Source: Pseudomonadota bacterium (GTDB taxonomy: Bacteria > Campylobacterota > Campylobacteria > Campylobacterales > Sulfurimonadaceae). Taken from it: 64,000 bases of DNA. The notes under the pieces are model-generated. The model had not been told where the DNA came from, did no database searches, and saw only the letters and a list, made by a program, of their open reading frames with translations. The translations under genes and the position numbers were made by a program. The DNA is taken from the NCBI GenBank assembly GCA_043797085.1, contig JAZDQA010000013.1:241140-305139 (forward strand), given 5' to 3'. This document shows, one piece after another, positions 45,346 to 62,174 of this stretch (positions within the stretch are counted from its first letter, which is position 1; each line of letters opens with the position of its first letter).

Positions 45346-45951
45346 ATGTTTACCCTGCCTTGTATTCTCTTCGCAGGTGGGAAAAGCTCCCGCATGGGGA
45401 GCGACAAATCATTGCTTCCTTTTGGTGAATATACCTCTCTTGCCGCGTTCCAATATAACCGACTTACCAAGCTTTTCACCAATGTCTATATTTCTACCAA
45501 AACACGTGAAAAATTCGATTTTGAAGCCCAATTTATCCTTGATGCAGAGAATACCGATTTTGCTCCAACCGTAGGTTTTGTGAGTGCTTTTGAAAAGTTG
45601 GGATGTGAGCGTTTTTTTGCCTTAAGTGTCGACACCCCTTTTGTTGATGTCGATACTATTGAAATGCTTCTACACGCAGATGAGTCTCATCTCGATGCCG
45701 TCATTGCCAAAACGCCTTCAGGAACCCATCCCCTATGCGGAATCTATCATCACACATTGCTAAAAAACTTTCAGCAGATGCAGCGTGAAGGTGACCACAG
45801 ACTAGGAAAACTGCTCTCCATGAAGCAAACACGTTTTGTAGAATTTGAAAACGAAGAAATTTTTATGAATCTTAATCATCCTCACGAATACAAAGAAGCA
45901 CTCATGCGTTATAGAAGTTTAGAAAATAGCATTTCCATCAAAGAAGTATAG
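45346..45951 (+). CDS. mobA: Molybdenum cofactor guanylyltransferase
   Basis: AGGKSSRMG.DK, VDTPF, HPLCGIY, F.NLN.P. Confidence 0.95.
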   Translation: MFTLPCILFAGGKSSRMGSDKSLLPFGEYTSLAAFQYNRLTKLFTNVYISTKTREKFDFEAQFILDAENTDFAPTVGFVSAFEKLGCERFFALSVDTPFVDVDTIEMLLHADESHLDAVIAKTPSGTHPLCGIYHHTLLKNFQQMQREGDHRLGKLLSMKQTRFVEFENEEIFMNLNHPHEYKEALMRYRSLENSISIKEV

Positions 45952-46709
45952 TATGAGGTTAGCGTATCCCAAGGATTAGTAGTATTATCGTTTGTTAAAT
46001 ACACATATCCTATTTTAAAAGAGTTCAACTTTTGCAGCTTTTGGGATGTAACCTCTGTTTGCGGAACTCCGTAACCAAGAAGGGCAAATTTCTCCGATGG
46101 ATACCGCGTAATGTACTCAGGCGGAGTAAGTGCATCATACGCAATCCCTTTTTTTTCATAGATAACCGTTATATCCGATATACGAACGATCTCTTCATCA
46201 GGATAAGCACCTGTATTTAAAACTACTTTTTGAGAAACATTACCCTCTTTGATAAAAGAACGTAACTCTTGATAATACACAGCACTTTGTGCGGATGCAT
46301 TTGCTTCATCGACAAAAATACCATCCAAGTTTGAATAACATTCTCTATAGCGGGCAATATCTGCCTTAACCTCTTCTATGGGACGCGCTGCGTAGAGAGT
46401 ATGAACATATCCGATTGCTTTAATTGACTTGCCCTTAAGTTGGCTAATTCCCGCTTGATAGTCTTGGCTTATTGTTGTATTGCACTCTACTGGACCATTA
46501 TTTGGGTTGATAATAGTTATGATTTCTACTGTTGTATTAATGTCTAATAGAGCTTTCCACTGCGGACCAGTCGGATAAGCATACAACGGAATAAGGGTCC
46601 CCTTAAACAAAGCAGGAGGGGTCGCAATCGTTTCATTACCATCTGTACCCATTTTACAACCCAGCACAAGAAGCATCGTAGCCACAAAAAATAAAAACTT
46701 TACAACCAT
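45909..46709 (-). CDS. Spherulin-4 family (GH135-like) lipoprotein
   Basis: LVLGC lipobox, LIPLYAYP, IINPNNGP, IGYVHT.Y, DGIFVDE, NPWD.L. Confidence 0.85.
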   Translation of the reverse strand: MVVKFLFFVATMLLVLGCKMGTDGNETIATPPALFKGTLIPLYAYPTGPQWKALLDINTTVEIITIINPNNGPVECNTTISQDYQAGISQLKGKSIKAIGYVHTLYAARPIEEVKADIARYRECYSNLDGIFVDEANASAQSAVYYQELRSFIKEGNVSQKVVLNTGAYPDEEIVRISDITVIYEKKGIAYDALTPPEYITRYPSEKFALLGYGVPQTEVTSQKLQKLNSFKIGYVYLTNDNTTNPWDTLTSYYTSLMEMLFSKLL

Positions 46710-46861
46710 AAAAATATCCAATATTAAAATTTAACTAAAAAAATTAAAGAGAGCGATTATTCTACCTTTAACTGCTTAATTTTCTTCTGATGTTCGATCT
46801 TCTTTTGAATTTACCACTCTAAGCTATAATAATAAAAAAATTAGATCAAAGTGATACAATA

Positions 46862-47356
46862 ATGAACCTAACCCACCTCGATGAGCGTGACCGACCCAAA
46901 ATGGTCGATGTCTCCGATAAAAACGCCTCAACACGAGTCGCCGTTGCCAGCGGACTTATTACAATGAGCCAAGACGCCTATGATGCCGTCGTCAACCAAA
47001 CCGCCAAAAAAGGTCCCGTCCTCCAAACGGCTGTCATCGCCGCCATCATGGGGACGAAAAAAACCAGCGATATTATTCCGATGTGCCATCCGTTAAACCT
47101 CAGCGGGGTAAACTGTGATATTGACGAACTTCCACAACTCCCTGGATTTCGTCTCACCGTCACGGCGAAATTAACAGGACAGACAGGCGTGGAAATGGAG
47201 GCCCTCACAGGGACAAGTATCGGATTGCTCACCATTTACGATATGCTAAAAGCGATTGATAAAGGGATGGTCATCGGACCCATCCAACTTGAAACCAAAT
47301 CAGGAGGAAAAAGTGGCGATTACATGCGAAATGAACGGACAAAAACTACAGCTTGA
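46862..47356 (+). CDS. moaC: Cyclic pyranopterin monophosphate synthase
   Basis: [42 protein letters not shown]. Confidence 0.97.
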
Positions 47357-47585
47357 ATACCCATGCTCATGGTGCTATAAAGTCATAGCATTTGAGCGAG
47401 CCGGTATTGAGATAGCGGCGATGGAAATTTTTTCCGAACGGATTTATTCACTCAAACCATCTAACACGAGTGGCAGCGGAAAATATGTCAGCATGAACTT
47501 AGAACTGTTGGTGCATAATGAGGATGAACGTACCTTTTTTTACGAAACACTCAAAGCACACCATCACATCAAAATGGTACTATAA
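47313..47585 (+). CDS. DUF493/HP0495-family protein
   Basis: GTG after AGGAGG; EYPC.W.YKVI, S..GKYVS, terminal IKMVL. Confidence 0.88.
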
Positions 47586-47594
47586 AGGAAACAT

Positions 47595-48566
47595 ATGAGC
47601 CTCGAAACTTTTGAAAATCAATTTAATCTTCAAGTCATTGACAAGCTCCCTTTAGAGGAGTTAAAAAGTCTCACATCCTCCCTCTTAAAAGAGGAAGCCT
47701 CTACTCTCCATAATGAACTCGAAGAACTCATCGAGCAAAAAGAAAAAATTGAGCGTCAAATATCTCGGAAAAGTGATGAATTGCAGCACCTGAAATATCA
47801 ATGTTTTGATATTTTAGAAAAAAAGTTTAGTGATAATGAAGAGATTTTAGCGAAATTGCACCTCATCAAAATTCAATCCGTAGATCTTCTTGACATACTC
47901 GAAGAGATGGTCGAATCAGCGATTATCACAACCCTTGAGAAAGGTTCTGACACTGAAGAAACCCTTCATGAAATCATCAAAGAGATAACTTTCCAAACGC
48001 TCAATGCCAACGTCCTAAATGCCGTTCGTATTCGTCGTATCTTTTCTAGTATACTTCAAAGCGCCCTTAATGTTGCCGAAGCAACACCCAATCAAGCTGA
48101 ACCGATTTTACGGGGAACGCTTTTGGGTATCCGTTCAGCACTCCACAAATCGATAGAAAAATTCCGTCAATATCTCCTCTATCTTCCCGATGAAATCCGA
48201 GCGCTCTACCATAAAGAGTATCAGTTGATCGAAGACGAATTGGAACAAATCCATACACTCTTTGGAAAAATCGTCCACTCTCTTGCCAAAAATAACTCTC
48301 CTGTACTCATAGAACAACTCACAGTTATTGGCTCAGAAATTCGTCTCGACAGCGATGAACTCGCTATTTTATCTCAAGAAACCGCCAAGCTCCTCCAAGG
48401 CAAACTCTCCAAGCTCCGTCAAGAAGTAAGTGAACGCAGTGCTGCACTCCTTAATTCTAACTCAGCACAAGAAGCAAAAGCAATGGGTAAACGCGCGTGG
48501 AGTGTTGCCAAATCAACGATGGAAGGGGCACTCAAAAGTGCCAAAGAGGCTATGGAGAAAAAATAA
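47595..48566 (+). CDS. Coiled-coil hypothetical protein
   Basis: 323 aa helical ORF with AAGGA RBS. Confidence 0.75.
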   Translation: MSLETFENQFNLQVIDKLPLEELKSLTSSLLKEEASTLHNELEELIEQKEKIERQISRKSDELQHLKYQCFDILEKKFSDNEEILAKLHLIKIQSVDLLDILEEMVESAIITTLEKGSDTEETLHEIIKEITFQTLNANVLNAVRIRRIFSSILQSALNVAEATPNQAEPILRGTLLGIRSALHKSIEKFRQYLLYLPDEIRALYHKEYQLIEDELEQIHTLFGKIVHSLAKNNSPVLIEQLTVIGSEIRLDSDELAILSQETAKLLQGKLSKLRQEVSERSAALLNSNSAQEAKAMGKRAWSVAKSTMEGALKSAKEAMEKK

Positions 48567-48675: not shown

Positions 48676-49761
48676 TTACATATCTCTCGCTAACGTAAAC
48701 ATATTACTAAACTCTTTTTTATAGCCGGAACAACGATCACAAATCGGATCCCCGCCTTTATAAGGGAACGGACATCGGCACTCATTGCACATGACCATTT
48801 CATAATGAACCAATTGCTCTGCACGCTCGTATGCGATGCTCACCATGTCAAAACCGGCTTTAGCCGTGATGGCATTTGGTTTGCAAATATCTTCACATAT
48901 CCCGCATCCTATACACTTGCCCTGAGAAAAATAGATTCCTTGTTTATCGGAGGTTGGGAACAGTGCATCGGTCGGACAAAATTGGGTACAATCACCGCAA
49001 TTCGTACAAAGATCAAAAGCAATTTGTTTGTTGAAAAAAAGCGGTGAAGATTCTGAAAAATCCGTTACTGCCATCGCTGTAACCACATCTTTGAGACTGT
49101 TTTTCAACAACACTTTCTTAAGCGGCGTGGTCATATTGGGAAGAGCATGATGGGTTGCAGTCATACTTTTTTGTACTTTTGGAGCATCCGCCACAGCTTC
49201 CTTTACTTTTTCCAATCCTTTGCGAAAAAGGGCACGGCGCGGCTCTTGCTCCTCTTGAACTTCAAGGGTGTCAATTTTCTTATCCACTGCTATTTGTACT
49301 AAAAAATCATTTGCTTGAGTAATAGCCCATCGTATGGTCTCTTCCATCTTTCCATTTTCATTCAATGCACAGCTGGAACAATGACTCATGTCACATACAA
49401 CAGCCAATTCTCCTCGCAAGGTCATCGTCAATAGATGTTCGGTATCAAATACACCCAAACACGGGGTTGTACTTTTACACGAGAGCTGAGTGTTTGTCTG
49501 AGATTGAAAAGATACCGAAAATTCATTGGGATCAAAACTCTCAATTTCAAAAGCTTCCGTAGGGCAGCTTCCGATACATCCTGCACATTCGATGCACTCA
49601 TTGTCAAATAAAGTGAGTTTATTACGAACTAAATGTATTGCCTCTTTGGGGCACAAATCGATACAAATATGACAATCATTATGAAAATATTCATTGCGTA
49701 AACAACGTGTCGCCGTAAAACTAAAAAGGTTATTTTTTTGAATAAAGTTATGGTTACCCAT
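48676..49761 (-). CDS. Polyferredoxin (multiple 4Fe-4S dicluster protein)
   Basis: CHICIDLCP, CIECAGCIGSCP, CTNCGDCTQFCP, CIGCGICEDIC, CNEC...CDRC. Confidence 0.9.
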   Translation of the reverse strand: MGNHNFIQKNNLFSFTATRCLRNEYFHNDCHICIDLCPKEAIHLVRNKLTLFDNECIECAGCIGSCPTEAFEIESFDPNEFSVSFQSQTNTQLSCKSTTPCLGVFDTEHLLTMTLRGELAVVCDMSHCSSCALNENGKMEETIRWAITQANDFLVQIAVDKKIDTLEVQEEQEPRRALFRKGLEKVKEAVADAPKVQKSMTATHHALPNMTTPLKKVLLKNSLKDVVTAMAVTDFSESSPLFFNKQIAFDLCTNCGDCTQFCPTDALFPTSDKQGIYFSQGKCIGCGICEDICKPNAITAKAGFDMVSIAYERAEQLVHYEMVMCNECRCPFPYKGGDPICDRCSGYKKEFSNMFTLARDM

Positions 49762-50323
49762 TGGCAATCTCTTGGTGTAAATATTCATAATCAGAGCATA
49801 AAAACTCCACCATAAAATCACATATGTCTTTGTAAAAAGGGGTATCTGCCATGCTTTTCATCCCTAGCATATAAGGGATAACCCACATAAACAAATGCTC
49901 ATCCATAAACTGGACTTGCGCTTTCATTTCGTTACGAAATACCAGCATCTGCATGAAAGCCAATTCGATAGAGAGATGATCCGGAGCCATAAGCTCGGTT
50001 TGATCCATGTTAAGCTCAAAACCGTGCGTAAAATAAAAAGCCATTACCGGGTTTTGCAGTCCCACAAGAGTTTCATTTTTCGCATCCAAAACAAATGACT
50101 CAACCGGCTGGGTATTCAGAAAAAAGAGGGATGTATAATCGGTATTCAATGCCGAATATAGCTCCTCTTCATTGGTTGTGTCAAACCACGCCCTCGTCTC
50201 TTCACCAATAACCTCGAGCAATTGCTGATTATTTTTGAGGTCAGTGATAAAACGACGATCGGGGATATTACTCATTACTCGCGATAAAAATGCATAAATA
50301 TAACGTCGATATTCAGTGTTCAT
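49754..50323 (-). CDS. TorD/DmsD-family molybdoenzyme maturation chaperone
   Basis: YAFLS, DYTSLF, PVES, PDHLSIELAFM, F..EHL..W; start MNTEY at 50323 after AGGA. Confidence 0.92.
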   Translation of the reverse strand: MNTEYRRYIYAFLSRVMSNIPDRRFITDLKNNQQLLEVIGEETRAWFDTTNEEELYSALNTDYTSLFFLNTQPVESFVLDAKNETLVGLQNPVMAFYFTHGFELNMDQTELMAPDHLSIELAFMQMLVFRNEMKAQVQFMDEHLFMWVIPYMLGMKSMADTPFYKDICDFMVEFLCSDYEYLHQEIANG

Positions 50324-50359
50324 AATTATTCCTAAAAAATGGAAGGGGATAGCTAGTGT

Positions 50360-50447
50360 GTCATTCCGTGCCACGACACGGAATCCATAAATATTAAAAG
50401 AGTGGATACCGTATCTACCTTAAAGGGCACGTGAAGTACGGTATGGG
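50360..50447. repeat. ~85-bp composite palindromic repeat, copy B (inverted relative to A)
   Basis: GTCATTCCGTGCCACGACACGGAATCC...TACCTTAAAGGGCACGTGAAGTACGGTATG. Confidence 0.85.
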
Positions 50448-50451
50448 TTTA

Positions 50452-50850
50452 TTATAAACAACCCTTAAAGAACGATTTCTTCGGTGGAGGCGGAGCTTTA
50501 AATTCAGTAGCAGCAATGATGTTTGTAGCCGTATCTAAAATACCTACGATAATAACACCATTTTTATTCATCCCCTCACCAAGCTCAGAAACTTTAAGTT
50601 TTGATGTATCGATTTGATACACTTTACCCGTATTGTGTTGAAACAACGCCAATTTTGGATTAGTAGTTGCGCCTGGTTCAATTTTTTTGAAACAATCATC
50701 TGAACCACAGCTATAATTTTCTAAATAACAATCCGCAAATGCTCCCTGAGCAGCACATGCCGGAGTCGTTAAAAGACCTTCGAATTCTTGCCCTTCATTT
50801 GCAAATGCACTAACAAAAAATGCCGCGCAGATCAGTGCAAATTTTTTCAT
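50452..50850 (-). CDS. Small secreted Cys-containing protein in the molybdoenzyme operon
   Basis: Signal peptide, five Cys in mature part, OB-like C-terminal half; overlaps gamma subunit stop. Confidence 0.75.
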   Translation of the reverse strand: MKKFALICAAFFVSAFANEGQEFEGLLTTPACAAQGAFADCYLENYSCGSDDCFKKIEPGATTNPKLALFQHNTGKVYQIDTSKLKVSELGEGMNKNGVIIVGILDTATNIIAATEFKAPPPPKKSFFKGCL

Positions 50851-52058
50851 TATTCTACCTCCGCTTTAAGAGATTTGAGATACGTTACGATATCTTCAAC
50901 TGTTTCTTTGTCTAGGAAACTGTAATCGGTCATCGTAGAAACGCGTTTCCCTTTTTCAATATTGTACCAAGGAGTATTGGCATGCGCATTACGGTTATAA
51001 CCTGGTACGACAACCGCAGACGGTTTTAAGATTGACTCACGCAGATAGGCTACTGAAGAGTAACCCCCAACATATTTCAATGACGGGGCCAAAAATGAAA
51101 CAGGATCAACCCTCTCTATTTGGTGACATCCGTTACATCCGTTTGCGGCAGATGCTTCTTTACCTTTTGCCGCATTACCTTTTGGATCGGTTGTCAGCTC
51201 AGCGAGCATTTCTGCATTCGATTTTTGCCCCTCAAGATTAATGGCAATCCACGCACTCAGGTTTTTAATTCCGTTACGACCCATTTTTGAACCGTCCCAT
51301 ACCGCGATCGAAACCGGTACGGTTCCGTTCAAATTCACATATTCATCTTTGAGTGAGCGACTAAGCGTCCCTGTCCAACCGTTCGATGCATACGTCATAG
51401 CTGCGTTAGATTTAACGGAACCGTCTTTAATTTCAGTCAAAGAACGATATCCCTCACCTACAAAGACACGCTCATAATCAGTATTGGCAAGTGATGCTGC
51501 TTTCGCGTCAAAATCGGCTAATTCTTTTTGGAATACCCCTGTTTGTTGACGATTGATTTGCATCCCTACATCATTATTACCATTAGGCTCATACACTTTT
51601 TCCATTGCTTTTTGGAGGTGTACAACTACCGGTCTACCGGTCGAACCCATACCGATGTATGGAAGCACTTGAGGTACTTTCGTTATCCCTGCAAATTGCA
51701 CGGCAAAACCATCGCTATACTCCGTAGTTGTTGCCGCGGATTGCACATCTTTCGTCCCGTCAGCCCATTTGACCAACAAGGCGATATTTTTGCCGTCATA
51801 CAGCGCAGCAACCTGTGCTTTTTTAGCTTTCGGATTTAAATTTTCAGGAAGCACATTTGCTTTTTTATCGTTCATATAGATTGCAGTTTGCGGATAAAGA
51901 GTTACGGTTTCAAATTTTGCTTTCGACCATACTGCTGAATTGGCTTTAATCGCATCCAATTTTTCAGAAACCTTAACTGCGTTAATCGCAGGATTAGCCG
52001 CTAGAGCCGCAGAGGCGGCAACACCCAGTGAAAGAAGGGTTGTAAGAAGCTTTTTCAT
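50850..52058 (-). CDS. Type II DMSO-reductase-family gamma subunit (EbdC/SerC-like heme b domain) fused to cytochrome c
   Basis: W.D.T, DGFAVQF, PYIGMG, AVWDG...RNG.K; C-terminal CNGCH, YLRESI..P. Confidence 0.85.
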   Translation of the reverse strand: MKKLLTTLLSLGVAASAALAANPAINAVKVSEKLDAIKANSAVWSKAKFETVTLYPQTAIYMNDKKANVLPENLNPKAKKAQVAALYDGKNIALLVKWADGTKDVQSAATTTEYSDGFAVQFAGITKVPQVLPYIGMGSTGRPVVVHLQKAMEKVYEPNGNNDVGMQINRQQTGVFQKELADFDAKAASLANTDYERVFVGEGYRSLTEIKDGSVKSNAAMTYASNGWTGTLSRSLKDEYVNLNGTVPVSIAVWDGSKMGRNGIKNLSAWIAINLEGQKSNAEMLAELTTDPKGNAAKGKEASAANGCNGCHQIERVDPVSFLAPSLKYVGGYSSVAYLRESILKPSAVVVPGYNRNAHANTPWYNIEKGKRVSTMTDYSFLDKETVEDIVTYLKSLKAEVE

Positions 52059-53155
52059 TAGTGGTGTCCTCCGGCTTTTGTAAACTTACCGGCAATGTAG
52101 CGCGTATCTACAGGTGCCAATGGTGTACGTTTTTGCTCTTTTGCAACTTCTTGATAGTAATGATTATCCAAACGGAACATGTCGGCATGCTGATACGCGA
52201 TCAGAATGTCCATAAGCTCACTTACACCCGTCTCTTTACGTTTTTTCATTTCCGCTTTGAGCGTTTTAATCGCATGGTGCACTTCAGGTCCAAACAATTT
52301 TTCAAGCTCTCCAATCGGTAGACGTGTTGATCCTTCGATGATTTTCCCCTCAGCATCAAACTTAGCAGGAGATTCGGTCGGAGGAACATAATAGACATTT
52401 GGTTGTGTTCCGTAATCAGAACGCAAGCCGATTGCTACTTTGTATTTGTGCACCAATTTATAAACTTGAGACTCTTCATCATCCAAGAATCCTACGAAAC
52501 GGATACGTCCGACACATTGTTGCGCACATGCCGGTGGTAAGCCCTGCTCAATACGTGGGAAACAAAGAATACATTTCTCTGATTTAGAGATTTTTGGATT
52601 GAAATAGATTTTTTTATAAGGACAGCCTGCGATACAATAACGGTATCCTTGACAACGATCCAAATCCACCAATACTACACCGTCTTGATCACGCTTAAAG
52701 ATAGCATCACGAGGACACGCACTCAAACATCCCGGATTTGTACAGTGATTACAAATACGCGGAAGATAGAAGAAATAGTTGTCTTGCGGGAATACTCCAG
52801 CACCCTCATCTTCATCCCAGTTTGGTCCCCAAGTAGGAGATATATGCGGCTTAAAAGTACTGTGATCAGCACTTTCCGTCATAATAGACTCATAGTTATA
52901 ATCCCAAGGAACCCCATAATCAGCTTCTAGATTAGGAATAACTCCCGGTTGAAGATCGCCAGCAGCATCAAATCCGCCGCCAAGTTCCATCCAGTTTTTC
53001 GGATAACCCGTACCCGGATAGGTCTCAACGTTATTCCAATACATATATTCACGACCGTTACGGTTCGTCCACTGTGTTTTACATGCCACAGTACATGTTT
53101 GGCACCCGATACATTTGTTCAGGTCCATGACCATTGCTAATTGTCTTTTAGACAT
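52058..53155 (-). CDS. Type II DMSO-reductase-family Fe-S beta subunit (NarH/SerB-like)
   Basis: DLNKCIGCQTCTVACK, WNNVET.PG, GPNWDED, CNHCTNPGC..ACP, CQGYRYC..GCPYKK, CILCFPR. Confidence 0.95.
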   Translation of the reverse strand: MSKRQLAMVMDLNKCIGCQTCTVACKTQWTNRNGREYMYWNNVETYPGTGYPKNWMELGGGFDAAGDLQPGVIPNLEADYGVPWDYNYESIMTESADHSTFKPHISPTWGPNWDEDEGAGVFPQDNYFFYLPRICNHCTNPGCLSACPRDAIFKRDQDGVVLVDLDRCQGYRYCIAGCPYKKIYFNPKISKSEKCILCFPRIEQGLPPACAQQCVGRIRFVGFLDDEESQVYKLVHKYKVAIGLRSDYGTQPNVYYVPPTESPAKFDAEGKIIEGSTRLPIGELEKLFGPEVHHAIKTLKAEMKKRKETGVSELMDILIAYQHADMFRLDNHYYQEVAKEQKRTPLAPVDTRYIAGKFTKAGGHH

Positions 53156-53164
53156 CTAAACCCC

Positions 53165-56077
53165 TTAATATTTTACGTCAGTTGCTTTTTCATAGTTCAC
53201 GGCACCATCGTAAGCGTATTGGTTACCATCCCACAGACCACCGAATTTCAAGTGACCCCAGCCATCAGCCATTTCCAAAAGGTTCATCGCGACAGGAACG
53301 ACCTCATTGTGACCTTTGTTTTTCAAATACATGTACGGTTCCCATCCATGCTCAAGAACCAAGCCATCAGCCGGTGCAGATGAAGAGAGTTTTGCCATTG
53401 CATAGAACTCGCCTTGTTGGTTAAAAATACGGATTGTTTCGCCGTCAGTAATCCCTTTAGCTTCCGCAACCACACGATTGATTTGAATCGCAGGAACACC
53501 GCGCTGTAAGCGTAAAAGCGTACGTGACGTTTTATAGTTGGAGTGAATAGACCAACGAGCATGAGGCGTCATGAACACATACGGATGATCCGATGATTGT
53601 GGACGAATTCCTTCCATTCCCGTGTTGGTTGCCGCACCCATTTTGATGTACATATCATGGTCAACATAGAATGTTTGACGACCTGATAATGTTTCAAGAC
53701 GCTCAAATTTATACAAATGATATTCCATAGAGCTGTACGGACGATCCGAATACAACGGTGAACTTTTTGCTGCTTTTTCATTAATAAGTAGGAACCCGCC
53801 CACTTTGTACATTTTTTCCATCGTCCATGGCTCGTACTGCTCACATTTTTCCAATGCCGCTTGAACTGCCATTTTATCGGTTCCGAGGTAGTTTTCACCA
53901 GCCCCTTCAGATTCAGCATCCGTATTCGTATACTCTTTGTGGAATATTGTCAAATCGTGGAAACCAGGTTTTGCATATTTTTTATGATCAGGAACTTTTG
54001 CTTTACTAATATTTTGAGGGCGATTTGCAAGCTCTTCCATTTTTTTAGCAAGAAGAGTAAACATAGACCACTCATCCATTGATTCACCAATATTTTTGAT
54101 GTTTGCAACCGGTTGAGCCAAATTGGTAAAACGGTGGTAACCCGGAGACGTACGAAGGTCATAGACTTCATAGTGCGATTTTGCAGGAAGTAAAATATCC
54201 GCAAATTGAGCTGCTTCAGACATACGATAATCCACGTACGCATAGAATTTCGTTTTTTCTAAGAATGCTTTTCGGTAATCAGAACCTTTATTACGACGGA
54301 ATTTTGAGTCCGCTACGATGAGAGCACAATCAGGCTGCCACCACGGCTTATTCACATTACCATGCTTCGACTCTTTATTAATCGTGTCATTCTCTCCAGA
54401 TTTAAGCATTTCTGACAATACTGCCATGTACTCTTTTTTCGACATACCGTTTTGTGCACGCTTCACGTCGTCATCACTGAAAAATTTGTCAAACGATTTC
54501 ATTCCGTCACCGAATACGAATTCGCCAACGAAACCGGATCCAAAACGAGCATTGTACTTACCGCTAAATCCTGCCAATACGCCAAGACCTGAGAGTTGGA
54601 ACTCATTTTCAGTATTGAGTCCGCCATATGGTCCCATACGCCCTGTCAATCCACAGATAGACGAGATATTCCAGATTGACATAACTCCATTGAAATATTT
54701 ATTCAATGAGAAACCGGTTGTAATTTCAACAACTTTTGGCAATGCAATGTCATGCGCAAGAATACGCACGGTATCAGGATGAACACCCGTAATATCTTTG
54801 GTTGCTTCAGGAGCAAATTTCGCTGCTGATGCTTTAAGCATTTCAAATACTGTTGTTACTTCGCGTTTATGACCATGCATATCTGTAATCGTCCATGAAC
54901 CCTCAAGCTCAGGTGTGATTCCCTGCTCATCAAGACGGAGTGATTTAATTGCACTACCTTCAGATGCCGGCATTAATGCAGGTTTTCCTGTCGCTGAATT
55001 CATACAGTAGAACTCTTCCGTATATTTGTGGTGATCTTCATCGTTTGCCGCATGTTCCATATCGGAACGACGGATCATTTTTTGCGTTTTTACATCGACC
55101 AAGAATGGAAGATCGGTAAACGTTTTCATGAACTCCGGTTTATAAAGCTTTTCGTTGATGATAACGTTCATAACACTCATCGCCAAGATGTTATCAGAAC
55201 CTGCTTTGATCGGGATCCAAAGGTCTGCTGATTTAGCGGTTGCATTGAATTCAGGAGTAATAACGATGACTTTAGCCCCGTTGTATTTCCCTTCCCAAAC
55301 GAAGTGAGCATCAGGAATACGAGAAACCGATGGATTTCCACCCCACATAACAGCGGTGTCAACGGTATACATGAAATCCCATGTACAACCAACGTTACCT
55401 TCGCCGTATGCGATTGCCGCACCTGAGAACATGTCCCCTAGATATGAAGAAGGATAAATACGAATCGCACCCAACTGTGTCGAGAAACGCAATGGAGCAC
55501 CACGACGACCTTCTGTGAGCAAACCTGTACCTGCGTGAACCATCAACTTATCCGGTCCGCGTTGTGGATCGGTCATACAATCAAAAATTTGTTGACATAC
55601 GACCTCAGCAGCCTCATCCCAGCTAATACGTTTCCATTTACCTTCACCACGCTCACCAACACGCTGCATTGGATAAAGCAAGCGGTCTTTTTGATACATT
55701 ACTTGAGAGTGCTGAACCCCTTTGTTACATCCGCGCGGGTTAAAGTCAGGGATTTTAGCGTTGATAACCGGATAACGAGCCGATTGGTTTTCACGTGTAA
55801 CAACACCGTTATTCGACCAAACTTCCCATGCACAGTTACCTTGACAGTTTACACAGTGATACGCAAAACCGTGCTCTTCTTTTTTACCGTACGTAAACGC
55901 AAACTCATTGCGATACATACTTTCGGTATAGTTGGTATTCGGATAATTTTCTTTTCCGTTTTCAACCGACATTACATTGGTTTTAGCAAACAATGACCCT
56001 TGAGAAGCCACCAATGCAGCCGTCATTCCTGATACTTTCAGGAAATCACGACGATTATTGTTCATTACTTTTGTCAT
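53165..56077 (-). CDS. Periplasmic type II DMSO-reductase-family Mo-bisPGD catalytic subunit
   Basis: Tat RRDFLK, HCVNCQGNC...PRGCNKG, GD putative Asp Mo ligand, TPHARWSIHS. Confidence 0.93.
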   Translation of the reverse strand: MTKVMNNNRRDFLKVSGMTAALVASQGSLFAKTNVMSVENGKENYPNTNYTESMYRNEFAFTYGKKEEHGFAYHCVNCQGNCAWEVWSNNGVVTRENQSARYPVINAKIPDFNPRGCNKGVQHSQVMYQKDRLLYPMQRVGERGEGKWKRISWDEAAEVVCQQIFDCMTDPQRGPDKLMVHAGTGLLTEGRRGAPLRFSTQLGAIRIYPSSYLGDMFSGAAIAYGEGNVGCTWDFMYTVDTAVMWGGNPSVSRIPDAHFVWEGKYNGAKVIVITPEFNATAKSADLWIPIKAGSDNILAMSVMNVIINEKLYKPEFMKTFTDLPFLVDVKTQKMIRRSDMEHAANDEDHHKYTEEFYCMNSATGKPALMPASEGSAIKSLRLDEQGITPELEGSWTITDMHGHKREVTTVFEMLKASAAKFAPEATKDITGVHPDTVRILAHDIALPKVVEITTGFSLNKYFNGVMSIWNISSICGLTGRMGPYGGLNTENEFQLSGLGVLAGFSGKYNARFGSGFVGEFVFGDGMKSFDKFFSDDDVKRAQNGMSKKEYMAVLSEMLKSGENDTINKESKHGNVNKPWWQPDCALIVADSKFRRNKGSDYRKAFLEKTKFYAYVDYRMSEAAQFADILLPAKSHYEVYDLRTSPGYHRFTNLAQPVANIKNIGESMDEWSMFTLLAKKMEELANRPQNISKAKVPDHKKYAKPGFHDLTIFHKEYTNTDAESEGAGENYLGTDKMAVQAALEKCEQYEPWTMEKMYKVGGFLLINEKAAKSSPLYSDRPYSSMEYHLYKFERLETLSGRQTFYVDHDMYIKMGAATNTGMEGIRPQSSDHPYVFMTPHARWSIHSNYKTSRTLLRLQRGVPAIQINRVVAEAKGITDGETIRIFNQQGEFYAMAKLSSSAPADGLVLEHGWEPYMYLKNKGHNEVVPVAMNLLEMADGWGHLKFGGLWDGNQYAYDGAVNYEKATDVKY

Positions 56078-56086
56078 ATTTGAGCC

Positions 56087-57202
56087 TTATCGTTTAATCG
56101 GAAGATTCATGTCGTTACCCCAAACATCCCAGCTTCCAGTGAAGACTTTGACATTTTTGTAACCGAGCAATTGAAGCGCTGTAATGTGTTCTGAACTTCG
56201 TCCTGCACCTACATGGCAATACGCATAAATGGTTTTATCTTTTGTGATCCCATAGTTGTCATATACCTTTTGGATCTCATCAGCAGATTTAAAAGACAAT
56301 TTTTTATCCGCATCCGAAATTTGACTCCACTCGATGAAAGTTGCACCTGGAACGTGTCCGCCACGCGCAACATTATCCATTTTTCGCTCACCGATGATTT
56401 CACCCATCCCGCGAGAGTCAATAATGACGTATTTTGATTTACTGCCGTTTTTAAGAATATCATCCATCGCGTGTTTTACTTCAACTTTATCCGCGATAAC
56501 ATTCCATTTGATTTTTTTAGGATCAATTTTATAGGTTTTCGGTTTTACTACCTCATCCCCTTTGACGACTAGAAGACGTTTTTCAACTGCTGTCATTTTT
56601 GCTTTTAATGCAGTAGAATCCGCTTGAGCTTTTGCGATAGTTGCATCAAGAGCCGCTTTATCCGCACCCTCTTTTTTCAACGCCTCTTTCGCTTCTTTTT
56701 GCGCTTTTGTAGCCGCTTTAAACTCTTTATTCAATGCATCGTATTCTTTTTGAGCCGGATCCACTGCCATCATAGCTGCACGTCCGCCGTTAAGTACTTT
56801 TACATTTTTATGTCCGTAACTGTCAAAAAATGAATAAACACCTGTTGCATTGGGACCTTTGAAGTCATCGTATGCGATAACGGTCATATCGTTGCTGATC
56901 CCTTTTTTCCCGATGGTTTGTTCTGCATCATCAATACAACGATACAAAGGTGCACAGTGCATCTCACCATCGATATCAGAATGGTGCAGGTGGTGCGCAT
57001 ACATCTCAACTGAGCCTTTAATGTGCCCAAGTTTATAAATGTCTTCGTTATCACCCGATACAAACATAACTTTTGGATTTCCGATCAATTTAACCGCGTC
57101 TTCGGCTGAAATAAGAATATCCTTATTCACAAAATCTGCTGCCAACACATTTGCCGCAGATAATGATGCACTCAAACAGAGGGTCATTAACAATCTATTC
57201 AT
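56087..57202 (-). CDS. Secreted tandem-domain rhodanese-superfamily protein
   Basis: Signal peptide from MNRLL at 57202; GHIKGS, LNGG, IDSR, GGHVPGA, YCHVGAGRS, FTGSW..W. Confidence 0.9.
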   Translation of the reverse strand: MNRLLMTLCLSASLSAANVLAADFVNKDILISAEDAVKLIGNPKVMFVSGDNEDIYKLGHIKGSVEMYAHHLHHSDIDGEMHCAPLYRCIDDAEQTIGKKGISNDMTVIAYDDFKGPNATGVYSFFDSYGHKNVKVLNGGRAAMMAVDPAQKEYDALNKEFKAATKAQKEAKEALKKEGADKAALDATIAKAQADSTALKAKMTAVEKRLLVVKGDEVVKPKTYKIDPKKIKWNVIADKVEVKHAMDDILKNGSKSKYVIIDSRGMGEIIGERKMDNVARGGHVPGATFIEWSQISDADKKLSFKSADEIQKVYDNYGITKDKTIYAYCHVGAGRSSEHITALQLLGYKNVKVFTGSWDVWGNDMNLPIKR

Positions 57203-57534
57203 CCATGCTCCTTTTTCTCTAAAATTAAATATTCTAATAACCAATTACCATCGTAATATATAGCTATCTTATGGAATTACCGCTCTTATTATAGATTCGA
57301 GTCTCTTAATAACTCTTAAATTTGTTTTAAAACTTACTATTTTTTTACCATTTGTTACATTCCCATCACAATTTCGTGCAATCTTCCTAATAAGATATTG
57401 TTTTATGTTTTCTTATAAATCTACTATCTTTTCTTAACCTTATAGCTTGAACTTAAAAGTATTTGTTTAATGAGTTTTTGCTAGTATCACAGTTACATTT
57501 ATATCAAATATACCAAAATTCAAGGAGTCCTCGT

Positions 57535-58140
57535 ATGAGCACTACCACCGTTTCGTATGCAATCGAACACTCAGACACCCTCGCACTTATTGAATTTCTC
57601 GAAGATAAAACCCTTCCTATCGAAGAGGTACGCATGATTTATGATGCATTTAAAGAGAACAAACAGCTCGTTGGTCAAGTTGCCATGAATCTCTCATTGC
57701 GAACCTCTGTCTATGAACGTGAAAAAGAGTACAGTCCTATAATGGTTGATTTACTCATCGATATTTCGCAAAATCCAATCGACATGGGAGCACGATGGGC
57801 GGTTGCCAAAAATCCTCATACCCCAGTAAAGGTTTTACGCCATTTGGCGAACGACTCTATCAATCTCGTTCGCGCTCTCGTTGCTGCCAATCCCTCAACC
57901 CCAAGTGATGTTTTAGAGAAATTTTTCAGTGATGAAAAAATTGTACGCGATGGGCTCTCAGGTAATCCTAACACGCCCCCTAAATTACTCAAAATTCTTG
58001 TTGACGACAATGATAAAATGGTTCGTATGCGCCTTGCTGAGAACCGTGCAGCACCAAGGGAAATCATTGAATCTCTCCTAAAAGACAACGACATTGATGT
58101 TACAAAAGCAGCACAGGCCAACTTGGATGCTTCAAAATGA
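57535..58140 (+). CDS. HEAT/LRV-repeat protein
   Basis: Repeats R..VA.NP.TP..VL..L..D; AAGGAG RBS. Confidence 0.85.
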   Translation: MSTTTVSYAIEHSDTLALIEFLEDKTLPIEEVRMIYDAFKENKQLVGQVAMNLSLRTSVYEREKEYSPIMVDLLIDISQNPIDMGARWAVAKNPHTPVKVLRHLANDSINLVRALVAANPSTPSDVLEKFFSDEKIVRDGLSGNPNTPPKLLKILVDDNDKMVRMRLAENRAAPREIIESLLKDNDIDVTKAAQANLDASK

Positions 58141-58511
58141 AAAAACACAATCATGAAATACGCAGTAAGTTTTTGACCCTTGAAAATCATTTTCTCAATA
58201 CTTTTTTTTCAGGACTTTATCTAAGCGCCGCCGATTTTATCAGTATTGCTGCAATGAACGGACTGGATTTAAAAATGCATTCCCGTGAAATGCTTATCAA
58301 AGAGCTTTTAAATGAAACCGATAAACTCGGAACAATTGGCGGTGTAGTTGTCGCGTTGAACCATCTTATAGATGAGCGAATCACGGCGTATCATCGACTT
58401 AGTCTTCAATATCCCCACGCTCGAGTACCGCTGGCAAAGCTTGCTCAAAAGGCAAATGGAACCAAATCACTTCTCGCACGAGATATCCGAGGAAATCCTT
58501 ATGAACAGTAA
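58137..58511 (+). CDS. Hypothetical protein
   Basis: 124 aa ORF overlapping both neighbours. Confidence 0.7.
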   Translation: MKKHNHEIRSKFLTLENHFLNTFFSGLYLSAADFISIAAMNGLDLKMHSREMLIKELLNETDKLGTIGGVVVALNHLIDERITAYHRLSLQYPHARVPLAKLAQKANGTKSLLARDIRGNPYEQ

Positions 58512-59541
58512 AAATTTTGAACATGCATTGCAAACGCTTAAGTACCCAAATCTCGATCGAACTCTTGGTGAGCTAAAGCTTATCTCTACAGCAAAAGTAA
58601 CCGATGGTAACGCTCACGTAGAACTTCTTACCGTAAGTGATGAATCCTACCTCACCGTCAAAACGGCCATTGAAAATGCATTTGCACATGATTTCAAATC
58701 GTTAAACATCACCAAAAAAGCGCAAACCCAAAAAGACAGCAACTACGGCACAACCTCGACACCAAATAATCGAGCACCGTATGCAGCAAACGTTATTGCA
58801 GTAACAAGCGGCAAAGGCGGAGTGGGCAAAAGTACCGTTAGTGTCAATCTAGCTATCGCACTCGCTCAATTGGGCTACAAAGTGGGTTTACTGGACGCTG
58901 ACGTCTATGGTCCCAACGTCCCGCGCCTCACCAATACCGATTTGGAAAAAATCAGCTGGAATGATGACAACAAAATCGTCCCAAGTGAAAACTACGGGCT
59001 CAAAATCATGAGTGTAGCATTGACCACTCCCACCTCTGATACTCCGCTTGTCTGGCGTTCATCCGTTGCCGTCTCTGCTCTTATTCAGTTTCTTGAGGAT
59101 GTTGCATGGGGTGAGCTTGATTTTATGGTCATCGATATGCCTCCGGGGACAGGAGATATTCAGCTCACCATGGCGCAAGAACTTCCCATCACAGCCGGTG
59201 TTCTCGTCACTACTCCGCAACTTGTCGCATCCGATGACGTCAGTCGTGCTATCCGAATGTTTCAAGACATCCATGTCCCTATGGCAGGATTGGTTGAGAA
59301 TATGAGTTATTTTATCGCTCCGGATACGGGAAATCGATATGACATTTTTGGTTCAGGGGGAGGACAGCGCCTAAGTGAACGATACAATATTCCCCTATTA
59401 GGTCAAATACCGCTGGACATGGAAATACGTGAAGGTTCAGATAACGGGGAGCCTCCAGTAGCACTTGGAAGCGATGTACAAAAAAAATATTATCAAGATA
59501 TTGTGAAAAAGATGCTGCAAGAGATAAAGTTTAAACTGTAG
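58501..59541 (+). CDS. mrp: Mrp/ApbC/NBP35-family P-loop ATPase
   Basis: SGKGGVGKST, DADVYGP, DMPPGTGD, VTTPQ, VENMS. Confidence 0.95.
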   Translation: MNSKNFEHALQTLKYPNLDRTLGELKLISTAKVTDGNAHVELLTVSDESYLTVKTAIENAFAHDFKSLNITKKAQTQKDSNYGTTSTPNNRAPYAANVIAVTSGKGGVGKSTVSVNLAIALAQLGYKVGLLDADVYGPNVPRLTNTDLEKISWNDDNKIVPSENYGLKIMSVALTTPTSDTPLVWRSSVAVSALIQFLEDVAWGELDFMVIDMPPGTGDIQLTMAQELPITAGVLVTTPQLVASDDVSRAIRMFQDIHVPMAGLVENMSYFIAPDTGNRYDIFGSGGGQRLSERYNIPLLGQIPLDMEIREGSDNGEPPVALGSDVQKKYYQDIVKKMLQEIKFKL

Positions 59542-59604: not shown

Positions 59605-60027
59605 TTACTCTTGCGCCCTAAGCTCTGCATACAGCTTCGTATACGCATCCACATCACTTCTCTGAGGCTTAATACGTATAGAGAGATACGAAATACTTCC
59701 ATCGCTTTTTTCACGCCTAAGCGCTGTTGCGTATACCCAATAGTGCCCATTATCTTTACGACGATTTTTGACAAATCCCGTCCAAAAACCTTTGCTCTGC
59801 AAATCATCCCACAACCCTTTAAAAGCGATACGCGGCATGTCAGGATGGCGAACAATATTATGCGGTTGACCGAGAAGTTCTTCTTTGGTATATCCTGCAA
59901 CTTCACAAAAAAGATCATTCACATACGTAATCATTCCATTGCTGTCTGTTTCGCTTAAAATATATCCGCTGGAGGGGAAAAACCATTCGTTACTTGTTGG
60001 ATCTTGATAGATGTCAGCCATGTGCAT
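59605..60027 (-). CDS. Stand-alone Aer-type PAS protein
   Basis: SETD..G.ITYVN..F, GQPHNIVRHPDMP, W.G.VKN.RKD..HYWV. Confidence 0.92.
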   Translation of the reverse strand: MHMADIYQDPTSNEWFFPSSGYILSETDSNGMITYVNDLFCEVAGYTKEELLGQPHNIVRHPDMPRIAFKGLWDDLQSKGFWTGFVKNRRKDNGHYWVYATALRREKSDGSISYLSIRIKPQRSDVDAYTKLYAELRAQE

Positions 60028-60173
60028 ATTCCTAAACAGTAATTACAAAAGTATAGCTAAAAAATTAGGATGGAAAATTTAAAATGTGGAAAAAAAAGAC
60101 TCTGAAGGTGAGTCTTAAGCACCGTCTTGATGCGGGGATAAAACCCCACTTCTAAGAATAGGCATAAAACGAC

Positions 60174-61004
60174 TTATTTAAACGTTTTTTGAAGGCTTTT
60201 TGTAACGGCATCAGGAATAGTCATAATGCCCATAAATCCGCCCATATCTAACAACGGATAGCTCACTGCGATAAAATATTTTGCATTTAATGCTTTTGCT
60301 TTTCCATCTTCGATTAACACAGCCCATGGCAAAAGCTCACTGTTTTGTGCACCGATTTTTTTAGGGAAAGCACTGGTACGTTTATCAAGCTCGACAAACG
60401 CAACATAACGATCAGGACCTACTTGGACAACAGTACCCTTGGCTGCATTGGCACGTGCGACCAAATCTGCGGTTGCTCCCTCACCCACAACATCCATATC
60501 TTGATAATACGGCATACCCATCATAAAACGGTAATCCGACAATCCTGCGAATTCCCATTGATCTTCAGAGTTTTTCAATGGACCAAATGCTTTTTCTAAA
60601 GCAATATATTCAGCGGAAGCTGTCGCATGATTGTAATCATCCTGCAAAAATGCTTTATTAAAATAAATAGGGTTAGCAATGTGCACTTGCTGGCGCTCAG
60701 CATCCACTAACATTCTTCCAACAGCAGCCAAACCACGCATTGGTTTGTTAGCATCCGCTTTCATGCTCGCATTGGTATAAAGAATTGTAGTAGCATTTTC
60801 TGATAATTTAAACGTGCCGACGACTTCAAAACCTTGAGCCGTTAATTTTGATTTTGCACTCTCAACATCAACATACGCCCCAACTCTATACGCCGAAACC
60901 ATTTTTTCTACAACAACACCGCCTTCAATTTTTGGCGCAGTGGCAGAACATCCTGAAAAAGCGATGGCAAATGCCAACGCGGTTAATGATAGTAATTTTT
61001 TCAT
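60174..61004 (-). CDS. Lipoprotein of unknown function
   Basis: FSGC lipobox; YRFMMGMPYY and YPLL.M..FM motifs. Confidence 0.8.
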   Translation of the reverse strand: MKKLLSLTALAFAIAFSGCSATAPKIEGGVVVEKMVSAYRVGAYVDVESAKSKLTAQGFEVVGTFKLSENATTILYTNASMKADANKPMRGLAAVGRMLVDAERQQVHIANPIYFNKAFLQDDYNHATASAEYIALEKAFGPLKNSEDQWEFAGLSDYRFMMGMPYYQDMDVVGEGATADLVARANAAKGTVVQVGPDRYVAFVELDKRTSAFPKKIGAQNSELLPWAVLIEDGKAKALNAKYFIAVSYPLLDMGGFMGIMTIPDAVTKSLQKTFK

Positions 61005-62166: not shown

Positions 62167-62174
62167 AAAACTTT

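Follow-up and report, generated by a model that had tools for sequence, protein, structure and literature searches.

The window (the whole stretch of DNA analysed, 64,000 nucleotides) contains an operon of seven intact open reading frames, all located on the minus strand between positions 48676 and 57202. They encode a rhodanese, the alpha, beta and gamma subunits of a molybdoenzyme, a small cysteine-tailed protein, a TorD-type chaperone and a polyferredoxin. Published papers label this operon Nar ('narG/narH'). The initial annotation had claimed a rhodanese-led operon of a type II molybdoenzyme, which is borne out by the seven intact frames and by an alpha residue, D215, that aligns with the Asp of NarG. 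Its reading of the individual genes stands with minor amendments: the FS0 motif includes an additional Cys75, and the starts of the TorD and polyferredoxin genes are refined to 50323 and 49761, respectively. Divergent accessory genes, assigned with Pfam and NCBIfam, are found on the plus strand (57463..59541), namely an LRV-repeat protein (57463-58140), a 124-aa open reading frame (58137-58511) and an Mrp/ApbC Fe-S carrier ATPase that ends at 59541.

All 20 distant loci, which represent 9 families of Campylobacterota, keep the core order rhodanese-alpha-beta-gamma-small protein, and the rhodanese is linked to the operon in each of them as well as in all 64 near loci for which upstream DNA exists. 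In the distant loci, torD adjoins the core in 17 of 20 cases and the polyferredoxin in 15 of 20; mrp is located divergently upstream in 19, the 20th locus beginning at a contig end. A scan of 32 open reading frames around the operon revealed no YeeE. Scans for promoters (21 versus 24.2 expected by chance) and for terminators (7 versus 7.6) gave chance levels. Identical contigs from one groundwater metatranscriptome span the junctions rhodanese-alpha, alpha-beta, beta-gamma and gamma-small protein-torD; such contigs give neither strand, level nor a single transcript, and may include carried-over DNA. Three further metatranscriptome runs contain relatives at a small share.

Components of the operon

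The first gene (56087..57202, minus strand) encodes a secreted tandem-domain rhodanese of 371 aa, assigned by Pfam PF00581, fold match and a structural model (pLDDT 88.6). A long helical hairpin (residues 149-207) separates its two domains, and the catalytic Cys329 (codon 56218-56216), invariant in 45 aligned rows, is located in the second domain, the arrangement that defines TST/MST enzymes. Cys83 and Cys89 are likewise invariant. In the fold search, tandem sulfurtransferases fill the first 50 ranks, the best PDB match of the model being 1uar, a rhodanese of Thermus (E 1.3e-18); the ESM Atlas matches are Rhodanese clusters. The active loop, C-x-V-G-[AT]-G-R, is of a CX5R type shared by all 20 distant rhodaneses and by 61 of the 64 near ones. 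Relative to the classic six-residue CX4[R/T] loop it has a one-residue insertion when aligned against YnjE; with the Thermus and Mycobacterium rhodaneses it aligns ungapped, and the helix of the model starts at G334.

The alpha subunit (53165..56077, minus strand, 970 aa), assigned by profile matches, alignments and trees, has a Tat signal (RRDFLK), an FS0 site and a predicted Mo-bisPGD cofactor. The FS0 motif reads H74-C75-x2-C78-x3-C82...C117, that is, H-x3-C-x3-C with an extra Cys75, and the ligands H74, C78, C82 and C117 are present in 66 of 66 clade rows of the alignment. Within the motif SYLGD215MF, D215 aligns with the Mo-ligating Asp of the E. coli and Haloferax NarG proteins (Asp222 and Asp249, respectively, in the available text of PMC8301774), and Asp is kept here in 71 of 71 aligned rows. 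P209 and S210 occupy the position of the Phe-Tyr gate of Nar and Pcr, whose His is also absent; the protein has Lys460, and R191-R192 are invariant. Its sequence places alpha, Tat-exported and Asp-ligated, among the type II molybdoenzymes of the DMSO reductase family: the Asp ligand, the FS0 His with three Cys and a four-cluster beta subunit (TIGR03478) are all present.

Within this type, the known families compared do not accommodate the operon. Alpha scores 735.2 bits against TIGR03479, the soluble Clr/Ser/Ddh/Ebd alpha family (cut-off 984.75), and gamma (84.4 versus 169.85) and the chaperone (37 versus 152.3) also stay below the soluble type II cut-offs. The scores against NarG (TIGR01580, 218.8 versus 1084.15) and the ethylbenzene dehydrogenase equivalog (NF042978, 315 versus 2000 bits) are lower than the respective cut-offs as well. 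Alpha matches PcrA with E 1.8e-100 and EbdA with E 1.2e-83; its identity is 25-29% to NarG, archaeal pNarG and PcrA, and 33.9% to ClrA, the nearest characterised relative tested. In trees that contain no named SerA or DdhA sequence (FastTree on 66 rows, IQ-TREE with LG+G4 on 26 of them), alpha forms a separate long-branched clade whose sister group includes ClrA; labels such as 'dimethylsulfide dehydrogenase/...' on the clusters P0125 and P0126 are automatic. A grouping with NarG (p-AU 1.5e-77) and a clade with ClrA alone (ClrA plus P0126, p-AU 3.9e-8) are both rejected. The initial annotation had tied its reading to this phylogeny, and would have given it up for an alpha nested inside a characterised clade together with an unconserved rhodanese linkage; alpha instead keeps a clade of its own outside those of NarG and ClrA, and the linkage is conserved throughout. 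The genome of the window, which is 95.9% complete, has no match to NarI (PF02665) or chlorite dismutase (PF06778), and this, together with the rejected clades, supports the earlier statement that a standard Nar or (per)chlorate locus is not present here. Another contig encodes a NarK-like transporter that scores below cut-off.

The beta subunit (52058..53155, minus strand, 365 aa; TIGR03478, 515.6 bits, cut-off 480.7) has 15 Cys in a 4+4+3+4 pattern, predicted to hold three [4Fe-4S] clusters and one [3Fe-4S] cluster. The gamma subunit (50850..52058, minus strand, 402 aa, signal peptide; PF09459 and PF00034) consists of an EB_dh domain, the haem b domain of the EbdC/ClrC type, fused to a class I cytochrome c. 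Its putative haem b ligands Met137 and Lys265 align with the Met and Lys of ClrC and of a Haloferax EbdC-like subunit; the cytochrome c site comprises C308-x2-C311-H312 and Met376, and a single CxxCH is found in 20 of 20 distant copies. For haem b with Met/Lys ligation, the available text of PMC8840923 gives potentials of +256 mV in EbDH and +324 mV in DMS dehydrogenase. The TorD/NarJ-type maturation chaperone (49754..50323, minus strand, 189 aa, PF02613) is followed by the polyferredoxin (48676..49761, minus strand, 361 aa, Fer4 domains). A paralogue of the latter is located downstream of TorD behind another Tat molybdoenzyme on contig C12, and the polyferredoxin probably serves the maturation of exported Mo/Fe-S enzymes in general, irrespective of substrate.

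The remaining gene (50452..50850, minus strand), passed over in the initial annotation, encodes a small secreted protein of 132 aa that we regard as a candidate sulfur carrier from its conserved tail and its model. Cys32 and Cys41 are invariant, and the protein ends in PPPPKKSFFKG-C131-L-stop (Cys codon 50460-50458). The tail PPPP..FFKGCL is near-invariant: 53 of the 55 near loci have it, as do 19 of the 20 distant ones, the one remaining distant locus having a TGA form. All 7 related proteins end at FKG. A metagenome scan with the pattern KSFFKGCL gave 80 of 80 Cys tails, a figure that is biased by the pattern, blind to Sec forms and hence not counted. In the homologue of one lineage (genome G162), an in-frame TGA aligns with the tail Cys and a hairpin follows downstream (z -2.1; 5 of 200 shuffles equally good). 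The same genome has selA, selB and tRNA-Sec, so that by these gene criteria this relative qualifies as a putative selenoprotein. The copy of the window is the Cys form, in a genome without sel genes. The fold is modelled as an OB-like barrel with a flexible tail. Pfam and NCBIfam gave no match and the fold searches no clear one: Foldseek listed nothing at E<=0.001, and the best Z of a second search, 6.1, was with OB-fold proteins only. The ESM Atlas gave unnamed clusters only (best 0.90). No SoxY-like row is among the fold matches listed, although the fold may yet be SoxY-like.

Distribution relative to soxC

Among 401 genomes, the small protein is present in 39, all of which have alpha, and soxC in 61; cultured hosts of the operon exist, Sulfuricurvum kujiense being one. 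The small protein and soxC occur together in 2 genomes versus 11.8 expected within four mixed families, an overlap this low being reached in 0 of 200,000 stratified draws. Exactly one of operon and soxC is found in 31 of 34 genomes of family f1, 17 of 20 of f6 and 20 of 23 of f10. Family f20 shows no exclusion (soxC in 2 of 8 carriers, 2.5 expected, p 0.49). A tree built from recA and eno of 79 genomes yielded 12 independent pairs, with 6.6 in the same direction and 0.4 in the opposite one (median p 0.031, spanning 0.008-0.22 over pairings). Rows G026 and G030 were excluded from the 80-genome sets, and G036 from the species tree on account of a recA fragment.

The two systems also share a chromosomal slot. 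The operon is bordered on the left by mobA, moaC, DUF493 and DUF6781 genes (45346..48566, plus strand; assigned by domains and relatives' loci) and on the right by genes for a PAS protein, a 276-aa lipoprotein, a DUF302 protein and a FadL-type porin (59605..63482, minus strand). In relatives without the operon the same left and right genes border soxCDYZ, and in Sulfuricurvum soxCDYZ fills this slot. Within the genus of the window, soxC-D-Y-Z is located between both flanks in 4 of 5 operon-less soxC-positive genomes, the fifth having one flank visible at a contig start; genome G007 has both operon and soxCDYZ in the slot. Other soxCDYZ loci of f1 border DUF6781-moaC in 8 of 11 cases. In the f17 genomes examined, the operon is 0-8 kb from soxXYZAB (3 of 3), and napA is found 7-9 kb away on the other side.

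The genome of the window has soxXYZAB and sorAB and lacks soxC; SorA-like enzymes are encoded in many carriers, this one included. Of all carriers, 22 of 39 have no soxB match. napA is present in 29 of 39 carriers versus 38 of 41 soxC-only genomes (18 of 59 such genomes were left out of this control), and is thus rarer in carriers without an exclusion like that of soxC. Sulfuricurvum genomes lacking soxCD have been reported, as has a Thiovulum without sox, dsr or sulfite dehydrogenase. In sox-less Thiovulum, which has a matching 'nar' operon, RNA values are 1907/1525 for alpha and 2.9/15.4 for napA (PMC9938260 supplement), that is, alpha is about 100-fold or more above napA (supplement file 7).

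A candidate route of sulfur oxidation

So far labelled a nitrate reductase, the operon probably is a candidate alternative route of sulfur oxidation. We infer both substrate and direction of the enzyme from its genes and their distribution: the exclusion with soxC and the shared slot suggest a sulfur role, the Cys/Sec tail makes sulfane sulfur bound to a protein a better candidate than a free oxyanion, and oxidation is favoured by the fused haem c together with the Met/Lys haem b. The initial annotation had proposed turnover of a sulfur (or Se/As) oxyanion, leaving substrate and direction open between oxidation and reduction; its sulfur role is retained on the grounds just given, and the tail speaks for bound sulfur in place of the oxyanion. 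We consider it fairly likely that the operon encodes a self-contained periplasmic module which, with unrelated components, replaces SoxCD-Y2Z2, oxidising tail-held sulfane sulfur and passing the electrons to cytochrome c. Several observations speak against a SoxCD replacement: the tree places a reductase, ClrA, closest among characterised enzymes; the same type of gamma receives electrons in SerABC and ClrABC; the slot borders moaC/mobA and may attract any Mo-enzyme; and more than half of the carriers lack the soxB match. The missing exclusion in f20, the wide span of the tree-based p, the lower share of napA among carriers, the nearby napA in f17 and a relative in a described sulfur reducer count against it as well.

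In the proposed mechanism, Cys329 of the rhodanese would accept sulfane sulfur originating from polysulfide, thiosulfate or species derived from S0 and pass it to Cys131, or Sec, of the carrier tail, which would then enter an alpha subunit without the aromatic gate of Nar and Pcr. There, the outer sulfur would be oxygenated two electrons at a time by the Asp-ligated Mo(VI)-oxo centre, as dimethylsulfide is by DdhABC. Electrons would flow from FS0 via FS1-4, the Met/Lys haem b and the fused haem c to the cytochrome c pool, with cbb3 oxidase or nitrogen-oxide reductases as final acceptors. The oxidised sulfur would leave as sulfite towards SorAB or as thiosulfate towards SoxXYZAB, both present in this genome, release possibly occurring via the seven-residue loop of the rhodanese.

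SoxCD-SoxY2Z2 likewise combines a periplasmic Mo enzyme, a c-type cytochrome exit and a carrier with a flexible tail ending in G-C; its genes stand apart from soxXYZAB, can occur without them and use the same slot in the genus of the window. Parts of PMC10045233 tie soxCDY2Z2 to the oxidation of S0 and describe it as functioning independently of soxABXY1Z1. SoxC, however, is of the sulfite oxidase family, without homology to the Mo-bisPGD/Fe-S enzyme found here, the carrier is OB-like rather than a SoxY/SoxZ pair, in which SoxY has a GGCG(G) arm, and the core adds a dedicated rhodanese. No protein of the operon matches a Sox family, save for a weak SoxX-like cytochrome match below cut-off, and the relation to Sox is thus 'works like', not membership. 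ClrABDC of Ideonella dechloratans shares the Tat alpha, the Asp ligand, a Lys at the position of His546 and the soluble Met/Lys haem b gamma; the operon differs from the Clr/Ser/Ddh group by the gamma-cytochrome c fusion, the constant rhodanese and Cys-tail protein, and the lack of chlorite dismutase. NarGHI, archaeal pNarG and PcrAB share the type II fold, the His-ligated FS0 and the Asp ligand, with the Phe-Tyr gate and NarI missing here. DdhABC of Rhodovulum sulfidophilum, as presented in sections of PMC8840923, is a type II enzyme that oxygenates sulfur and passes electrons from a high-potential haem b to cytochrome c. It acts on free DMS and, likened by description, provides the chemical precedent for the proposed step. 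Neither a rhodanese nor a carrier is known from that system.

Alternative readings and implications

Exclusion and slot would fit equally well if the same sulfur oxidation used free sulfite or thiosulfate from the rhodanese, the small protein being a thiol/selenol redox helper or activator. Cys-to-Sec exchange is typical of catalytic redox thiols. Known type II enzymes also use small free substrates, according to the available text of PMC8840923. This reading is unlikely, as SorA-like enzymes are already at hand in many carriers including the genome of the window, the excluded partner is SoxCD with its carrier SoxY2Z2 and not SorA, and the architecture of the tail, with a barrel followed by a Pro linker and a terminal G-C, is like that of SoxY and other carriers. 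Quite unlikely, in turn, is a periplasmic reductase of nitrate, chlorate or selenate fed by cytochrome c in the manner of ClrABC or SerABC. ClrA in the sister group, the common alpha-beta-gamma layout, napA missing in 10 of 39 carriers versus 3 of 41 soxC-only genomes, napA near the operon in f17 and the published Nar labels would agree with it; the two rejected clades, the missing gate and His, the lack of Cld and NarI and the napA of the other carriers would not, and the fixed rhodanese, the Cys/Sec tail and the soxC exclusion would be left unexplained.

Sulfur chemistry in the reverse direction, that is, an enzyme that reduces or disproportionates S-oxyanions or sulfane sulfur, whether free or on the carrier, and might serve sulfur respiration, is distinctly unlikely. 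A 75% identical protein named Sulfurospirillum arcachonense (P0102) points this way, as that species is described in parts of PMC4794192 as a microaerophilic sulfur reducer with no sox genes, its genome being said there to lack thiosulfate, tetrathionate and polysulfide reductases; the carriers without soxB fit as well. The operon, however, has no quinol-oxidising membrane subunit, and the module it replaces is oxidative. Reduction potentials of thiosulfate, sulfite and S0 are negative, and a haem b near +250 to +320 mV, as measured on relatives, would be too high for these reductions. Very improbable, finally, is a system for As/Se oxyanions or thio-arsenate, with a Cdc25/Acr2-like CX5R rhodanese and a tail thiol that binds the metalloid. 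It draws on the near-constant longer loop, which parts of PMC10135228 give as a mark of phosphatases and arsenate reductases, on the insertion relative to YnjE and on a weak resemblance to ExtH (E 1.5e-10) whose score stays far under the cut-off. Against it stand the tandem sulfurtransferases in the fold search and the ungapped loop alignment; the neighbours of the operon that were scanned include neither ars nor Se-reduction genes, and the soxC exclusion would be unexplained.

Returning to the replacement of SoxCD-Y2Z2, the scales are level for its wider form, a second, independently evolved Sox-type pathway in which an enzyme of the DMSO reductase family acts on a persulfide, or the corresponding Se species, of a dedicated Cys/Sec-tailed carrier that a CX5R rhodanese of the operon both loads and unloads, the whole being interchangeable with soxCDY2Z2 across Campylobacterota. 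In genome surveys, a lack of soxCD is taken to mean that sulfur oxidation is incomplete and 'narGH' to mean respiration of nitrate, and through this operon both readings may err for abundant Campylobacterota of caves, aquifers and vents. If true, the proposed pathway would close a recognised gap by accounting for the oxidation of sulfur past S0 in 'soxCD-less' Sulfuricurvum and in sox-less Thiovulum, would extend an enzyme family known for small molecules to a substrate bound to protein, and would define a new family of Cys/Sec carriers.

Gene content, conservation and distribution of the operon

The seven open reading frames that the initial annotation had placed at 48676–57202 are all present and intact on the minus strand, and domain scans concur with its labels: a rhodanese (56087–57202), a molybdoenzyme alpha subunit (53165–56077), beta and gamma subunits, a small protein (50452–50850), TorD and a polyferredoxin. 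The first five genes are separated by gaps of 0–13 bases. The closest named loci, mostly titled Sulfuricurvum, have alpha subunits 89–98% identical to this one. The lack of NarI and of chlorite dismutase, noted earlier for the neighborhood, holds genome-wide: neither was found in the host genome (95.9% complete), nor was a soxC above cut-off; soxXYZAB, sorAB, and napA are all encoded.

Gene order is constant across 70 near loci, with the rhodanese before alpha in all 64 that include upstream DNA and the small gene after gamma in all 55 that extend that far. The unit rhodanese-alpha-beta-gamma-small is also intact in all 20 distant loci, which represent 9 families and have alpha subunits 64–83% identical. 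torD comes next in 17 of these 20 and the polyferredoxin gene follows in 15; both are probably generic maturation genes, because a pair of this kind is also found behind another Tat molybdoenzyme of the host genome. This second Tat molybdoenzyme (1130 aa; contig C12, 22872–30567) comes with NrfD-like and Fe-S subunits, a TorD and polyferredoxin of its own, and a homologue of a 124-aa ORF near the operon. Two similar REP-like short palindromes lie past the small gene (50360–50390) and past the polyferredoxin gene (48643–48668), and may step down expression ahead of the maturation genes; hairpins past the small gene occur in relatives too.

Within a draw of 401 Campylobacterota genomes, 39 encode the small protein, and all 39 encode alpha; two large families (276 genomes of the draw) have neither. 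The alpha genes of four carriers (G068, G074, G221, G374) are reported as split into two to four fragments, which may reflect frameshift, insertion or sequencing error. Two contigs filed as a Thermoplasmata genome (L027, L028; alpha 91% identical) are most likely misbinned Sulfuricurvum DNA. In several distant genomes a DUF3373 protein, with an OprD-type porin, is encoded ahead of the operon or ahead of soxXYZAB (loci L086, L088, L090, L092, L093, L315, L317, L318).

Sulfuricurvum kujiense oxidizes S0 and thiosulfate to sulfate. One publication gives S. kujiense, RIFRC-1 and PC08-66 as having no soxCD and encoding a 'membrane-bound Nar' (PMC4288042); a protein named Sulfuricurvum sp. PC08-66 (P0059) is 78% identical to alpha. 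A six-gene operon described for Thiovulum (PMC9938260) comprises a rhodanese gene, 'narG' and 'narH', a gene for a cytochrome c and one left unannotated. It matches the present operon in gene order, in sizes (2886, 1113, 1233, 498 nt) and in the orthologues given for it (Sulku_2491/2492, NIS_1816). The same paper gives the Thiovulum genome as without sox, dsr, apr and sulfite dehydrogenase, and reports RNA values of 1907/1525 (alpha) and 567/432 (small gene), compared with 53/18 for neighboring glyQ and 2.9/15.4 for an incomplete napA ORF.

Properties of the encoded proteins

The alpha subunit retains the type II marks: all 66 clade rows have the His and Cys ligands of FS0, and Asp215 is conserved in 71 of 71 rows. 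It reaches the curated cut-off of no named family, and its identity is 33.9% to ClrA of Ideonella, 28.8% to NarG of Haloferax and 25.4% to that of E. coli. In trees without named rows for SerA, DdhA, PcrA and EbdA (PcrA and EbdA being compared through search alone), the alpha clade is long-branched with support 100, followed by the proteins P0124 and P0125, and the group of ClrA is sister. Two forced groupings, chosen after inspection of the first tree, were rejected: alpha with NarG (p-AU 1.5e-77) and alpha with ClrA and P0126 (p-AU 3.9e-8). Where PMC8301774 describes a Phe-Tyr gate in PcrA and NarG, the operon alpha has Pro-Ser/Ala, and the position of NarG His546 is Lys460; ClrA departs in both respects too. 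Two clade members of 943 and 827 aa (P0121, P0122; 48–54% identity) have lost or lack the FS0 ligands along with other motifs of the active site, and are possibly, judging from their sequences, degenerate or inactive paralogues. An 848-aa type II alpha adjoining chlorite dismutase on the conjugative Alisedimentitalea plasmid NZ_CP123588.1 (L084) has its own tree branch and is possibly an unlisted type of (per)chlorate reductase.

The gamma subunit keeps the Met and Lys aligned with those of ClrC, and a cytochrome c is fused to it in all 20 distant copies. For Met/Lys haem b, the available text of PMC8840923 gives potentials of +256 mV in EbDH and +324 mV in DMS dehydrogenase. By analogy, we infer that the enzyme would be a substrate oxidizer or a reducer of a high-potential substrate. 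Reduction of a sulfur compound from haem b of such potential would be uphill.

The rhodanese has tandem domains, a signal-like N-terminus and sulfurtransferases as fold matches. Its loop reads C-x-V-G-[AT]-G-R in all 20 distant copies and in 61 of 64 near ones. Compared with the common CX4R/T form, this CX5R loop has one extra residue, which gives it the length described for Cdc25-type phosphatases and arsenate reductases (PMC10135228). The insertion is visible against YnjE and absent against Thermus and Mycobacterium rhodaneses, and is therefore a lead only; such a loop may suit tetrahedral S-sulfonate as well as sulfane. The two domains are separated by an inserted helical hairpin that is rich in Lys and Ala and varies in length (56582–56758, residues 149–207).

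The small protein, whose N-terminus is signal-like, gave no family match. Its model is a beta-barrel (pLDDT 79.9, tail low-confidence) whose best structural matches are OB folds with modest Z (at most 6.1). The most conserved part is the tail, PPPP-x-x-S-F-F-K-G-C-L-stop, present in 53 of 55 near loci; one of the remaining two runs into Ns and the other is cut by a contig end. Among the distant loci 19 of 20 have the tail with Cys, and the 20th (L104, genome G162) is encoded as K-G-TGA-L-TGA, with the first TGA followed some 11 bases later by a GC-rich hairpin (z -2.1, modest); selA, selB and tRNA-Sec are above cut-off in this genome. Six further clusters, known as protein only (65–76% identical), end at FKG too. 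Two genomes with selA (G031, G222) retain the Cys, and no Sec genes were found in the window's own genome. Cys/Sec exchange on a terminal arm is a mark of a reactive chalcogen site.

Relation to soxCDYZ

The gene soxC is present in 61 of the 401 genomes, and occurs together with the operon only in G175 and G366, where a soxB–soxC distance of about 4 kb indicates a one-piece sox operon. By family, operon, soxC and both are found in 6, 25 and 0 of 34 genomes (f1), 6, 11 and 0 of 20 (f6), 2, 18 and 0 of 23 (f10), and 8, 6 and 2 of 19 (f20); f20, with both modules in 2 of 8 carriers, shows no exclusion. A within-family test gives 2 co-occurrences against 11.8 expected. Because kin genomes are not independent, a tree was built from recA and eno for 79 hand-picked genomes, on which 12 independent pairs (6.6 agree, 0.4 oppose, 5.1 are uninformative) give a median p of 0.031 (range 0.008–0.22), making this test only moderately strong. 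The control napA is somewhat rarer in carriers (29 of 39, versus 38 of 41 soxC-only genomes tested), yet shows no exclusion. Since soxB is found in only 17 of 39 carriers, the operon is independent of soxXYZAB, as is soxCDY2Z2 according to the available parts of PMC7952632 and PMC10045233.

The operon is flanked in the window by mobA-moaC-DUF493-DUF6781 on one side and PAS-lipoprotein-DUF302-fadL on the other. Between the same flanks, four of five operon-less soxC-positive genomes of the genus carry soxC-D-Y-Z, accompanied by thioredoxin, MOSC and two DUF302 genes; one flank is shown in the fifth. This position agrees with the exclusion counts. DUF6781-moaC also borders 8 of 11 other soxCDYZ loci of f1. 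In G007 the slot holds both modules; there the rhodanese gene and the LRV-mrp genes enclose the soxCDYZ cassette (L111, C1:452000–469178), perhaps a swap caught mid-way. In family f17 the operon lies 0–8 kb from soxXYZAB in three genomes, with napA 7–9 kb on the far side in the two genomes for which that side was covered. Genes for DUF302 proteins recur, as do those for a 276-aa lipoprotein and a FadL-type porin, by the operon (60174–63482), by soxCDYZ and behind soxXYZAB (further host-genome sites C6:29713–30576 and C12:182004–182966), and are candidate sulfur-uptake accessories.

Functional assignment

The operon is a real, conserved module mislabelled as Nar. It is apparently uncharacterised so far: in the partly accessible literature searched, with most subscription journals and bioRxiv supplements outside its scope, the operon is nowhere treated as a sulfur enzyme and the putative carrier is nowhere mentioned. 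A sulfur-oxidizing role of some kind is likely. With less assurance, we lean towards a non-homologous stand-in for SoxCD-Y2Z2 that would oxidize sulfane sulfur on a putative Cys/Sec-tailed carrier. Against such a stand-in, the nearest characterized relative is a reductase, and the species named for a protein 75% identical to alpha (P0102), Sulfurospirillum arcachonense, is a sulfur reducer without sox genes according to the available part of PMC4794192; the missing exclusion in f20 also speaks against it, as do the molybdenum-cofactor genes bordering the shared slot. The parts of the module, the putative carrier excepted, come from known families; their combination is new.
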